Virus record (IMG/VR): IMGVR_UViG_2684623059_000005
Length of the DNA stretch: 46,081 bases
Source of the DNA: a virus
Lineage: Duplodnaviria > Heunggongvirae > Uroviricota > Caudoviricetes
Reading direction: 5' to 3' (one strand)
The stretch's first letter is position 1; each line of letters opens with the position of its first letter. The position numbers are program-made. Below are positions 39,201 to 45,200 of this stretch, one piece after another.

Positions 39201-42200
39201 TGCGTTTCAGAGTGGACTCTGACCAGAACGGAAACTGCTCCAGCCACTGTTCTGTCGTGTTATAAACCCAGCGAATTCCGCCATGCTCAGTGCCTGAATT
39301 CGTTTCATTCAGCCAGTAATGAAGCTGCTGCAACACAATTGCCTCATTCAGACCAATACGGCATGCAAGATCACGATTTATCACAATGGGCTGGGATGTC
39401 ATTAACAGGCTCATGACCGACCTCTATTTCCCTGAATTTACGACGAAACTGTTCGAGCGGACTGAAGCATTCATGTTCATAGCCTTCACGGAGGTAGATA
39501 ACCCGTTGTGTTTCCGGCTCCCAACGAATGACTCTGACGGGCACTCCGTAGTGATCTTTGAACCAGCGGTTAACTTGTCGCAAAGGACTGTCTCCTTCTG
39601 CCGGTTGAAATCACCCACAGCCCACTCTGCAAAGCTGTGGGTTACAATTTCCCTGTCACCTGGTACATTCACTGCATAGCAATACTCCACCTTCGCTTTT
39701 CCACCCGGTACAGGAAGCGCAATCAGTTGCGAGCGACGGTAGTGTGTTGTTAAACTGTTCATGCGTTAGTTTCTCCACAACCAGAAGCAATCGACGCCAC
39801 GACGCCCGGAGCTGCACACTCGCGGGCGTTACTCTTTTCCGGCGCACAAAAAACACGAAATAACAGTGTTAAATGCTCCTGCCACTTCGCCATTACTTGG
39901 TAGCTGTTCTCTTCGATTTGCTCACGCTCAGCCTGGTCAATAACTCCATCAGCAGTTGCCTTGCGTAAGTACTGGGAATGCTTGCCAATCCATTCTATTG
40001 ACTCCATCAGCCGCTGATTAATGTCACCATTGTCAATGTCATCAATGACCACCAGCGGCACAAACACCCCATTACTACGACGGGCTATTGCATCCGTTAC
40101 ATGCCTGGTACCACTGGCATCCTGTAAAACCATGGCCCACTCAAGTGGAAAAATTTGATCCCCACCGCTACGCAGTCTGTTATGCAATTGATCTTTTGCT
40201 GGGGTGATATCATCAGATTTATACAAACCAAGAATTTCTGCTGCTTCCTCATAGCCATGAGGTAAATCAGCAATCGTTCTTCGTATTGCTGCCACCAGCC
40301 ATGCTGGTTGCTTATCAACTTTCCATTCAGGTTCTTTACCCACGTTTAAGCCCTCATATCTGTGGTTTCTGTAAATCGATTTATCCATTAGATTTTTCAT
40401 AAAGCTCAGGTTTAAATGGCAACCGTCCGCAAGTTCTATATGCAGCCTCTGCTGCACGTCCTTTTGGAATTAACTGGCCAGGACGGTTTCGCCACTGATA
40501 AACGGCTTCAGTTGTTATGCCGAAAAAAGCAGCAACTTTCTCAATGCTGCCGAAGTAGCTTTCGATATCGTCAGTCGTCATATGCCCTCCTAACTAAGTT
40601 TTATTAGATGTTAATTATCAATCTATCTTAGGTCAATAAAAACTAAGATTACTTAGTAATTAAAGAAATGGTGCTCCTATGGAAACGGTTGGTCAGCGTA
40701 TAAAATCTCTGAGAAGAGTTACCAGAACGTCCCAGAAAGAATTGGGTAAATTTTGTGGAGTAAGTGACGTTGCTGTGGGGTACTGGGAGAAAGACATCAA
40801 TGTCCCTGGTGGAGAAGCACTTTCAAAATTAGCGAAGTTCTTCAATACGTCAATAGATTACATTCTTTATGGTGCGGAGTTTGAAGGCAAACTCGTCACA
40901 AACATGCGCAGAGTTCCTGTAATCTCGTGGGTTCAGGCTGGGCAGTTTACTGAGTGCAGGACAGCAGAAGTGTTTAGTGAAGTAGACAAGTGGGTAGATA
41001 CATCATTAAAGATTGGTGATAACTCATTTGCATTGGAGGTTAAAGGCGACTCCATGACTAACCCTAACGGCCTCCCAACAATACCAGAAGGCGCAACAGT
41101 GATTGTAGATCCTGATGCAGAACCCCGGCATGGAAAAATAGTCATCGCTAGACTTGATGGAACAAACGAAGCCACAGTAAAAAAATTAGTTATCGATGGC
41201 CCCCAAAAGTTTTTAGTGCCATTAAATCCCCGGTACCCCAACATCCCGATCAATGGTAATTGCCTCATCATTGGTGTAGTCAAAGGAGTTCAATACGAAC
41301 TCTAGCCCCCCTTTTCTCTAACCAAAACACCGAACTAAGAAAAGTTTGGTGTTTTCTCTTGCCATCAAAACTAAGTTAAGTTAGATTTTATATCAAAGAT
41401 AACGAACAGGCAGGACGCCCACGAAGTAGCCGACGGTGGCGTATGAATGACCGGATGATTCGCACATGGCAGGAGAGTGAATATGGATGGCAGTATCGAC
41501 AACCAACGAGATGCCTGGCTTGTGGTGATTGAAGCAGCAAAAACTGCATTAAGCCAAGTTGAAAGCAGTAACTACAGAACAGTTAAACAAATGGCTTTGG
41601 GCTCTATTATCTATGCCTTTGAAAGGCTGGGCTTTGATTTTGAAGCAACGAGTATTCTGTCAGAACAACATGAAAAAATGAATAGAGAAGACGCCGCAGC
41701 CTATATCGGCGTAGAAGCGCAAACCTTAGCTAATTGGGCTAGCACAGGAAAAGTTCGAATACCTTTTTTAAAAATCGGTAGAAAGGTTATTTACCTAAAA
41801 AGTGATCTTGATGCCTATCTTGCCTCATCGAAGGCAAATACCACCAAGTAGCTCACATACCTACCACCTCGCCTGATGTGGCTAAAAGCAGGCACATAAC
41901 AGCTAAGTATTTTCAACCAGAGAGAATCCTTAGCGTTGTGGTGAATGCGGCTCAGCGCACGCGGGTTAAGGTTGAGACTGACAGTCGACCTTCTGTGGAT
42001 ACCCACCCGCCTGGTGTGCAACCTTCGCCAGGCACCGGGAGGCACCCGGCACCACAACAGCCACTGCTTTGGCGGTACCAGTTTGTACACTTGCTTCCGG
42101 CTGGTACCGCTCTTTTTACAAAACAGAGAAGAGCATCACCGGACGACGGGCTCATAACCCAATCCACCCGGGCGGCTGCCACCGCAGGTGTTCTTCTCTG

Positions 42201-45200
42201 TTTTGTGGAGAAACCAACCGACCTTGCAGGGTCGATATGATGAGGAGCAGCAAAATGGCTAGCGAACGCAGTACTGATGTGCAGGCATTTATCGGAGAGC
42301 TGGACGGCAGCGTATTTGAAACCAAAATCGGCGCAGTTCTCAGTGAAGTCGCTTCCGGTGTGATGAACACGAAAACCAAAGGTAAGGTCTCGCTCAACCT
42401 GGAAATCGAACCGTTTGATGAGAACCGTGTGAAAATAAAACACAAACTCTCATATGTTCGCCCGACTAACCGCGGGAAAATTTCCGAAGAAGACACCACC
42501 GAAACGCCGATGTATGTCAATCGCGGTGGTCGCCTGACTATTCTGCAGGAAGACCAGGGACAATTACTGACTCTTGCCGGTGAACCTGACGGAAAACTCC
42601 GCGCAGCAGGTCATTAATATCGTTCTTAATTAACTGATTATTTATCTCATCACTGAATATCTTTATATAGTGAGGACTTATTATGTCTCAGAACTTAGAC
42701 GCAACCGCAATTAATCAAATCCATGCCCTTATTTCTGCTCAGGGTGTTAATGAAATTATCAGTAAGATTGGTGCCGATGCTGTGGCATTGCCTGAGAATT
42801 TCCGCATTCATGATCTGGAAAAATTTAATTTAAATCGCTTCCGTTTCCGTGGTGCGCTTTCCACTGCCAGCATCGATGACTTTACCCGTTATTCTAAAGA
42901 TCTTGCAGATGAAGGCACCCGCTGCTTTATCGATGCCGATAATATGCGAGCCGTCAGTGTGCTTAACCTGGGTACTATTGATGAACCAGGTCACGCAGAT
43001 AACACCGCCACCCTCAAACTGAAAAAGACAGCACCGTTTTCTGCTCTGTTGTCTGTTAATGGCGAGCGTAACTCCCAGAAGTCACTGGCAGAATGGATTG
43101 AAGACTGGGCCGACTACCTTGTGGGCTTTGATGCTAATGGTGACACCATTCAGGCAACCAAAGCGGCTGCGGCAGTCCGTAAAATCACAATTGAAGCAAA
43201 CCAGACCGCTGATTTTGAAGACAATGACTTCAGCGGCAAACGCTCTCTGATGGAGTCTGTCGAAGCGAAAACCAAAGACATTATGCCAGTGGCATTTGAA
43301 TTTAAATGCGTTCCGTTTGAAGGCCTGAAAGAACGTCCGTTTAAATTACGCCTCAGCATTATCACTGGCGATCGTCCTGTACTGGTTCTGCGCATTATTC
43401 AGCTGGAAGCGGTGCAGGAAGAAATGGCTAACGAATTTCGTGATCTGCTTGTTGAGAAATTTAAAGACAGCAAAGTCGAAACCTTTATTGGTACTTTCAC
43501 CGCCTGATTTCATTACTGCAAATGCCCCTGCGGGGGCATTTATGGAGACATAATTTACTCAATAATCGCCGGATGGTGAGGGCTTCTTTTTACCAGAATT
43601 CAGCGCGGTGCAGCGCATATACGTGGAGAACAAAATGTCATTTATTAAAACTTTTTCCGGGAAGCATTTTTATTATGACAAGATAAATAAAGACGACATC
43701 GTTATTAACGATATCGCGGTTTCCCTTTCAAATATCTGTCGCTTTGCAGGACATCTTTCACACTTCTACAGCGTCGCCCAACATGCGGTGCTTTGCAGCC
43801 AGCTGGTACCGCAGGAATTTGCTTTTGAAGCGTTAATGCATGATGCAACAGAAGCATATTGCCAGGACATCCCCGCACCACTGAAACGCCTTCTTCCTGA
43901 CTATAAACGGATGGAAGAAAAAATAGACGCCGTAATCCGTGAGAAATACGGGTTACCTCCTGTTATGAGCACGCCAGTGAAATATGCCGATCTCATTATG
44001 CTGGCAACCGAACGCCGCGATCTCGGGCTTGATGATGGTTCTTTCTGGCCTGTACTGGAAGGTATCCCGGCGACAGAGATGTTCAAAGTTATTCCACTGT
44101 CACCAGGCCATGCCTACGGGATGTTTATGGAACGTTTTAACGAGTTATCGGGGTTACGCAAATGCGCATGAATGTTTTCGAAATGGAAGGGTTTCTTCGC
44201 GGGAAATGTGTACCGCGAGATCTGAAAGTGAACGAAACAAACGCTGAGTACCTGGTGCGTAAATTTGCTGAAGCTGAGGCCAAGTGCGCGGCGCTGGCTG
44301 AACGTATCGAAGAGTTACAGACAAAACCTACGCCAGATTCGTTTGGCATCATCGGTGAAAATATTCGAACACAGGATAATCGAATAACGTCAGACCCTAT
44401 GTTTTGTGTGTATCAAAAGCGCGAAATTGTTGTTGATGCTGATTATGACTATGACCGGATTGTCTGGGTTGATGAAGATGGCAATGAAGCCAATAAACTC
44501 CAAAGTCGTCGTCTCGAACTACTTCATGAAAACTTTCGGGAACCACCAGAAAAATGGCGGCGCGTTGCTGTGAAAGATATTGATGAATTCGTTACCTGCT
44601 GTTTCACCGAACAGGGTTGTAAAGACTACCTGGCAGCCAACGGTCACAATCTTCGCTTGCCATTTATATATGTAAAAAGCGGTTTCAGGAACGCTGAATA
44701 TATCAGCATAAGAAACTGGCTTGCTGGCATTCGCATCAAAGGAGAGTGAGATGATCGGACAAATATCAATTGTTCGACCGGGAGCATGTGACGATCGCGA
44801 GATACGAATGATTATTCGTCTGGCAATGGGGAAAACAATAACTGCTCTCATTACTCCTGAAAATCTCGCATTAGCGTTAACAGGAAAGTCAGACCTACCA
44901 GTAGACATAAAGCTGCGAAATGTTGAGATTAAGGTGAAATAGCATGAATTCTATTACCAAAGAACGTATCGAATTATTCATTAAAAATCCGCTTGAAAAC
45001 GGGCTTACCCGTGGTGAACAAATGGAACTTGCACGGATTACGCTGGCATCGCTGGAAGCAGAACCGGTGGCATGGCTGCATTCAGACAATGGCTTAGGTA
45101 TTCCGGCAATAACACGGAGTAAAAACGTTGCTGACAGTTGGTTATCAAAGGGTTGGTATGTTCAGCCGCTATATATAGCTCAGCCAGTACACGTGCCGGA

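Follow-up and report, generated by a model that had tools for sequence, protein, structure and literature searches.

The inverted repeat in the early-left leader of the lambdoid prophage IMGVR_UViG_2684623059_000005 is the base of a conserved RNA three-way junction (3WJ) made from the + strand. The record was analysed over its full 46,081 nucleotides, referred to here as the window. The leader carrying the 3WJ is structured, non-coding and modular: a domain of STnc100 type is followed by a DicF-like hairpin (T1), the 3WJ, a small hairpin and the ribosome-binding site of yfdP. Among its homologues, the 3WJ occurs near-obligately after terminators, in early-left as well as in late leaders.

An earlier note on this DNA had described a perfect 15-bp inverted repeat enclosing a GC-rich loop of about 58 nt. 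The 15 perfectly repeated nucleotides are present, one arm lying a single base away from where it had been placed (42118-42132 pairs with 42192-42206), but the loop is not a simple one: it folds into two further helices, P2 and P3, and a conserved apical loop (Table 1). The helix built on the repeat, P1, also takes in the U-tract of T1, whose UUUUU pairs with GGAGA; of the local inverted repeats in the window it is the longest. An exact seed of 12 nt occurs in just one other, a perfect 30-bp palindrome (ATATTGCCTGAATAA/TTATTCAGGCAATAT) at 7162-7191. The whole leader is heavily structured over about 340 nt, the stretch flagged earlier being its downstream two-thirds. Folding of that part (42040-42215), as the note had proposed, gave z = -6.1, and folding of 41895-42260 gave z = -7.9; no shuffle was equally stable in either case.

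Table 1. Coordinates of the leader elements and of the neighbouring signals in the window.
Feature	Position	Strand	Basis or remark
3WJ RNA	42113-42211	+	fold, 32-sequence alignment, covariance model
3WJ P1	42113-42137/42187-42211		25 bp, including the T1 U-run
3WJ P2	42139-42142/42168-42171		plus inner pairs
3WJ P3	42172-42175/42182-42185		
3WJ apical loop CGGGCUCAUAACCC	42147-42160	+	14/14 identity to metY nt 29-42
Extended invariant motif GGCUCAU..CCCAAUC	42149-42164	+	
T1, putative DicF-type intrinsic terminator	13-bp hairpin 42071-42083/42099-42111, U-run 42113-42117	+	fold
STnc100-type multi-helix domain	41917-42060	+	Rfam RF02076, below gathering score
Closing stem of the domain, GUUGUGGUG with CACCACAAC	41935-41943 with 42050-42058	+	inverted repeat I7
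Terminal hairpin of the domain, CCGGG-AGGCA-CCCGG	42035-42049	+	
Small hairpin CGACCUUGCAGGGUCG, between 3WJ and ribosome-binding site	42220-42235	+	fold; compensatory changes in alignment A1
Shine-Dalgarno sequence GAGGAG	42242-42247	+	sequence
yfdP ATG, first gene past the leader	42255-42257	+	PGAP annotation of almost identical E. coli locus
cI-like repressor gene	40679-41305	+	Pfam Peptidase_S24 and HTH_3
pL-like sigma-70 promoter TTGCCA-17-TAGATT	41359-41387	+	consensus scan, sequence; putative promoter function
Operator-like palindrome AAAACACCGAAC...GTTTGGTGTTTT	41330-41387		overlaps the pL-like promoter, just 3' of the repressor gene

A motif scan of viral contigs returned more than 120 loci, and 32 non-redundant sequences from viral and genome loci were aligned. 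We counted 20 pairs in P1, 7 in P2, 3 in an apical mini-stem and 4 in P3. Overall, 91.4% of the cells were paired, against 85.4% after shuffling of columns and 35-54% in slid controls; P1 itself was paired at 93%. The compensatory changes that the note had suggested looking for in homologues were found: 14 pairs were changed on both sides, covariation was seen in P1, P2 and P3, and none of 500 shuffles reached the observed values. A covariance model built on the junction (R1) scored about 83-118 bits on the sense and about 32-46 bits on the antisense strand (105.9 versus 40.8 in one comparison), and the element is therefore an RNA of the + strand. Insertions of 13-27 nt are tolerated in P3, and as their lengths are not multiples of three the 3WJ region is non-coding.

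These results bear on the possibility that the region codes for protein, or that the repeat acts as a site in DNA, which we give hardly any chance. Long open reading frames (ORFs; 41878-42240 and 42069-42617) do span it, and some phage records annotate hypothetical proteins there. The indels out of frame, the helix-preserving compensatory changes, the G-U pairs that work only in + strand RNA and the excess of sense (about 100 bits) over antisense (about 40 bits) scores all speak against it, and PGAP starts yfdP at the ATG equivalent to 42255.

No family of Rfam 15 matches 42113-42211. Neither R1 (at E ≤ 1) nor pattern searches found the element again elsewhere in the window, for instance after pR or Q. 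Two Providencia loci (L030, 2387-2480, and L032) have in the same position a divergent long hairpin scoring 31 bits with R1; its interior differs and contains UUCAUAC, and it may be a distant relative of the 3WJ.

The apical loop and initiator tRNA

At the tip of the junction, GGCUCAU(A/U)(A/C)CCCAAUC is almost invariant in Enterobacterales prophages while the surrounding helices covary, and the motif is kept in more than 120 viral contigs. The stretch of metY to which the window tip is identical belongs to the anticodon stem-loop of E. coli initiator tRNA and comprises three G-C pairs and the loop CUCAUAA; the longest match to metY in 5000 shuffles was 11 nt, against the 14 observed. The mimicry is nevertheless partial. 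Three of the five anticodon-stem pairs can form in the apical mini-stem (only two in 5 of 32 sequences), the GGG/CCC pairs never vary, about one third of the sequences carry U instead of A at the equivalent of tRNA nucleotide 37, resulting in loops CUCAUUC or CUCAUUA, and homologue L031 lacks CUCAU. Searched with ARAGORN and the Rfam tRNA model, the window returned only the tRNAs at 33144-33446 and not the 3WJ. Homology of the leader with the metY-rimP intergenic region (tRNA-fMet, terminators and RNase III sites) was considered and rejected, the 14-nt match being all that is shared.

Mimicry of a tRNA by messenger RNA has a precedent in the thrS operator. The tip could imitate the anticodon arm of initiator tRNA as a decoy or inhibitor for nucleases that attack anticodon arms, for instance enteric VapC/MvpT, or alternatively be a ligand for the 30S P site, IF3 or MetRS. 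We hold this to be unlikely. The identity described above, pairs and loop included, and the near-invariance of GCUCAU..CCCAAUC amid covarying helices speak for it, and a tip carried by the read-through leaders of early and late operons alike would be abundant during lytic growth. The hosts also fit, with phages of Shigella, Salmonella and E. coli among them: VapC of Salmonella and Shigella targets the anticodon arm of tRNA-fMet, cleaving in the stem-loop, and acts on structures that resemble it (PMC7180214). The incomplete stem without covariation in GGG/CCC, the U at position 37 and the exception L031 count against it, as does the fact that the match was noticed post hoc.

More broadly, the 3WJ could be a new class of phage RNA presenting an initiator-tRNA anticodon arm, made only past the terminators of early-left and late leaders and used as decoy or ligand, a proposal that we regard as unlikely. 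If true, the 3WJ would be an RNA-based counter-defence, soaking up VapC-type toxins that cleave tRNA-fMet, or a device for translation control.

The DicF-like hairpin and the STnc100-type domain

The note had compared the sequence just upstream of the repeat with the small RNA (sRNA) DicF, and this resemblance holds in part. TTTGGCGGTACCAGTTT at 42068-42084, the 5' arm of T1, differs by one base from UUUGGCGGUAUCAGUUU of DicF in the K-12 prophage Qin. The hairpin (-21.2 kcal/mol by folding) is followed by UCUUUUU, and GGCGG...CCGCC with a U-run, a hallmark of DicF, is present. A second hallmark, location in an early operon beside a lambdoid immunity region, is shared as well, the layout in Qin being dicA-ydfABC-dicF-dicB. 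In an alignment of 19 sequences including DicF (17 homologues), the 11 stem pairs were 84.7% paired, against 35-63% in slid controls, in which the partner column of the T1 stem is shifted. Six pairs were changed on both sides (U-A to C-G, for instance, on seven occasions), and the U-run followed by AC was invariant. Some relatives have a longer T1, extended by an inner helix and carrying AAUGUUCUG as a conserved bulge.

In contrast, the covariance search that the note had recommended was negative: the Rfam DicF model (RF00039) had no match in the window at the gathering threshold (48 bits) or at E ≤ 10. The genuine DicF scored 76.7 bits and the best T1 homologue, from Leclercia, 28.4 bits (E = 0.045). 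Calculated duplex energies with ftsZ gave a fraction of shuffles at least as stable of 0.626 for T1 and 0.166 for DicF, a test in which genuine DicF itself is not separated. PasB and other Pas sRNAs were rejected as the identity of T1, PasB being located among structural genes. In architecture and position T1 is related to DicF, though not a member of the curated family; it adds a relative to a kind already known.

In Qin, ydfABC-dicF transcripts ending past dicF coexist with longer ydfABC-dicFB-ydfD transcripts, and dicF-containing RNA is processed by RNase III as well as RNase E (PMC10448788). Because Qin dicF shows both ends and read-through, T1 is read by analogy as a leaky intrinsic terminator of DicF type.

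The STnc100 model RF02076 matches 41917-42119, a stretch beginning upstream of T1 and taking T1 as its terminator, but with 36.3 bits the match stays short of the gathering score of 47; its E value is 6e-6 for 1.4 kb searched and 2e-4 for the entire window. The same domain was observed in ST64B, in an E. coli relative of 94% identity, where it scores 45.1 bits, and in Qin of K-12, where it stands directly after genuine DicF and before dicB. In locus L199, its closing stem shows a change of U-A to C-G. The window domain is a divergent member of an already described group of prophage RNAs. The order of domain and DicF-type hairpin varies between loci (window 41917-42060; L036, 2933-3142; L020, 2222-2300).

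In Phytobacter the slot of the domain is occupied by a tRNA gene (52.8 bits with Rfam tRNA; Ile-AAT with ARAGORN). The acceptor stem of the Phytobacter tRNA, GUUGUGGCG, resembles the closing stem GUUGUGGUG, a hint that the STnc100-like domain is related to tRNA.

Setting, distribution and possible roles

The window holds a lambdoid prophage of the SfV/ST64B/mEp460/CPS-53-like type. The assignment of the region to an early-left operon was borne out: on the + strand, the repressor gene and the pL-like promoter, the presumed origin of the leader transcript, precede yfdP (42255-42617), yfdQ (DUF2303) and yfdR. Between promoter and leader the sole ORF is a small HTH_17 one ending at 41851 (Pfam), separated from yfdP by a gap of 403 nt without a credible gene. 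ORF and Pfam analysis found no N-like ORF between cI and yfdP, in agreement with the suggestion that this phage has no N homologue in the usual position. The - strand encodes a P22-type Cro, a CII-like protein, replication genes, three tRNAs and the Q antiterminator (PF03589, 34373-35167). The tRNAs (Gly-TCC, Thr-TGT and Met-CAT, 33144-33446) lie 3' of Q, the late-leader position that in other phages holds the minimal junction RNA described below; the Met tRNA has the anticodon loop CUCAUAA, identical to that of the 3WJ tip. Elsewhere on the - strand, 4218-4442 matches Rfam IS009 (RF02111) below threshold (98.6 bits versus 117, E = 1.5e-21).

Of 5,426 complete E. coli genomes, 2,809 have a match to the 411-nt region 41850-42260 (1,823 of them over at least 80% of its length), as do 66 phage records, among them SfV, SfII, SfIV, ST64B, mEp460, cdtI and Stx2a/Stx2c phages. 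Inspected records leave the leader unannotated or call it 'hypothetical protein', and none annotates a non-coding RNA. A scan based on yfdP with one genome per species found it in Shigella, Leclercia, Enterobacter, Kosakonia, Phytobacter, Mangrovibacter, Atlantibacter, Superficieibacter, Scandinavium and Pseudocitrobacter. Across these genera the non-coding 42095-42220 is 70-90% identical, versus 56-75% for the YfdP protein, and the UGCAG loop of the small hairpin before the ribosome-binding site recurs in many homologues despite a differing stem sequence.

The modules can also be separated. The STnc100-like domain occurs in Buttiauxella with neither T1 nor 3WJ, and in Martelella contigs T1 is present but the 3WJ is not. 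Some phages share only the part from 42042 onward, as seen in mEp460, indicating that leader parts recombine. Both mEp460 (L003, 351-539) and ST64B (L004, 409-597) carry on the - strand a C4 antisense RNA and an isrK-like RNA in the antirepressor region; neither RNA had a match in the window.

Besides the long form there is a minimal 3WJ, with a P1 of 6 bp and with P2, loop, P3 and junction nucleotides as in the long form, whose variants differ from one another in a compensatory way. Its place is in the leaders of late operons: in L156 (12006-12060) it lies between Q (PF03589) and holin, and in L077 (1903-1985) just upstream of holin, in both cases directly after tR'-like terminators. L156 has two copies, the other being a long form in the early-left leader before rdgC. 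In L199 the minimal form (about 2400-2490, - strand) is downstream of the last ORF before the late leader, an ORF that was not scanned against Pfam. This leader reads Q stop, terminator, a match close to the STnc100 consensus, two terminators, minimal 3WJ, hairpin and holin, which is the module order of the window early-left leader. By regular-expression count on non-redundant sequences, a T-run abuts the 3WJ in 93 of 95 long and 26 of 36 minimal forms; the remaining minimal variants have a GC-rich hairpin with a degenerate U-tract instead. The M3 RNase P substrate of phi80 was tried as an identity for the minimal form and rejected: in a phage database, a region with the minimal form matched only four E. 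coli phage records, none of them phi80.

A simple model of the leader, to which we give about an even chance, combines an STnc100-type domain, a leaky DicF-type T1, the 3WJ as an RNase III stalk and the yfdP hairpin with its ribosome-binding site. The domain would be transcribed first from pL. T1 would end a short STnc100/DicF-like RNA while part of the polymerases read through, as at Qin dicF, so that the 3WJ would be present in read-through transcripts only. P1, which absorbs the U-tract of T1, would most likely be cut by RNase III as a double-stranded processing stalk. This cleavage would separate the short RNA from the yfdP-yfdQ-yfdR mRNA and define or shield the 5' end of the latter; the small hairpin and the ribosome-binding site would close the leader, and the invariant tip probably binds a conserved host or phage factor. 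With its 25 pairs, P1 has the size of an RNase III substrate (at least 20 bp, about two turns), and RNase III processing of the dicBF transcript is documented (PMC10448788). The 3WJ would probably serve as a processing or insulating element, with cleavage by RNase III, termination at T1 and any effect on yfdP expression all being presumed.

Several observations weigh against this model. The loop of T1, 15-19 nt, is long for an intrinsic terminator, and a simple terminator scan of the sequence did not list T1. In most long forms P1 has one or two mismatches that are conserved. As P1 of the minimal form has only 6 bp, RNase III cleavage cannot be a function common to the whole family, and a processing role leaves the near-invariance of 15 loop nucleotides unexplained. 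Published RNase III and end-mapping data of K-12 are of no help here, since its CPS-53 has lost the leader.

Alternatively, the excised junction, released by RNase III in long forms and possibly by RNase P in short ones, could act in trans as an sRNA, with its G-free loop CUCAUAACCCAAUCC as the seed for pairing to some conserved RNA of host or phage; targets in the host genome would be complements of GGCUCAUAACCCAAUCC. The geometry of a processing stalk and an invariant single-stranded loop, typical of a seed, fit this proposal; the minimal form resembles a tRNA without D-arm, with 3' GCC(A/U) after P1, and the neighbouring modules DicF and STnc100 are known sRNAs. A search of the window for a partner of the apical loop gave nothing above chance, however, and the excised piece would have neither a terminator nor a 3' end of Hfq type. 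We consider action in trans quite unlikely.

The leader could also be a switch in cis, masking the yfdP ribosome-binding site until processing and thereby controlling translation or stability. The lambda N leader, which is sensitive to RNase III, would be comparable. The minimum free energy fold of 41895-42260 pairs the 5' flank of T1 (42058-42069) with the Shine-Dalgarno/AUG region (42243-42260), a predicted pairing that encloses T1 and the junction, and a small conserved hairpin stands just before the Shine-Dalgarno sequence. The long-range pairing is not conserved in other genera, however, and the first genes that follow the 3WJ are unrelated ones (RdgC, holin and others), hence the 3WJ is not specific to yfdP. 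Such a switch has, in our view, a slim chance.

The note had also pointed to boxA and to antitermination by RNA. A boxA-like CGCTCTTTTTACAA is indeed present in the window, but of 105 non-redundant homologues only 27 have CGCTC ahead of the T-run, the others having CGTCC, CGCCC, GCACC, CGCAA and so on; a boxA resembling CGCUCUUUA is thus not conserved. The next structure past it is the 25-bp stem with its junction and not a short boxB hairpin. A nut site was rejected accordingly: boxA is not conserved, and a boxB-like hairpin, an N gene and a second copy are all absent.

The absence of an N-like ORF, a terminator within the operon and the two copies of L156 in divergent operons could suggest that the leader replaces N by processive antitermination, either put-like and RNA-based or nut-like through the boxA-like CGCUCUUUUUACAA. 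We rate the chance of this as very slim. The 3WJ is transcribed after T1 and cannot suppress it; the window has a single copy and none near pR, the second copy of L156 is in the late leader after Q and not after pR, and no convincing + strand terminators lie downstream within 42200-46081. Compared with the complete HK022 genome by short-word blastn, 41300-42300 yielded nothing beyond 11-16-mers of chance level, and R1 had no match there. Put-type antitermination of T1 is therefore already largely refuted.

Searches of the literature with exact sequence strings, yfdP, ST64B sRNA and initiator-tRNA mimicry found no description of the 3WJ. As a general kind, structured leader and processing RNAs of phages are already known; what is new is the 3WJ, absent from Rfam 15, with its tRNA-like tip and its rule of following terminators. 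A widespread leader, found in about half of complete E. coli genomes, has been left unannotated or under spurious ORFs. Leaders of lambdoid operons emerge as assemblies of exchangeable RNA modules, with either a tRNA or a domain of STnc100 type, a terminator of DicF type and a junction RNA, which places DicF and STnc100 in one architectural family. The position and loop of the 3WJ offer a testable handle on read-through transcripts in lambdoid phages lacking N, and on phage mimics of tRNA arms.

Likeness to known systems

DicF of Qin shares with T1 the 17-nt core (with its single difference), the GGCGG...CCGCC hairpin and U-run, an adjacent STnc100-like domain and a location inside an operon transcribed away from a lambdoid repressor gene. 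T1 and DicF are unlike in the 5' single-stranded seed and in the loop. The STnc100-like domain of Qin comes after DicF, that of the window before T1, and Qin has no 3WJ. As to STnc100/PasD (RF02076), described as prophage-borne RNAs, the domain and T1 together align end to end with the 206-nt model, sharing UGGUGAAU..., CACCGGGAGGCACCCGGCACCA and the closing stem. The window domain differs in its sub-threshold score and in being in an early-left leader, not near Q or stx.

HK022 put and lambda nut are, like this leader, structured RNAs in early operon leaders, of a phage without N (put) or of a lambdoid phage (nut). The leader differs from both: it has no sequence or model similarity, its junction is a single copy located after a terminator, and boxA is not conserved.

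Initiator tRNA and the 3WJ have in common 14 contiguous nucleotides, the GGG/CCC pairs and the CUCAUAA loop. The 3WJ has no D or T arms, however, forms two to three stem pairs and varies in the loop at tRNA positions 37-38.

The RNase III stalks of rRNA precursors, T7 early mRNAs, the lambda N leader and dicBF mRNA resemble P1 in that a helix of about 25 bp is formed from the flanks of a structured insert, in the case of P1 in an operon leader just before the first gene. Unlike them, the 3WJ has a short form of 6 bp and its conserved part is the apical loop and not the stalk; its cleavage is presumed from this likeness.

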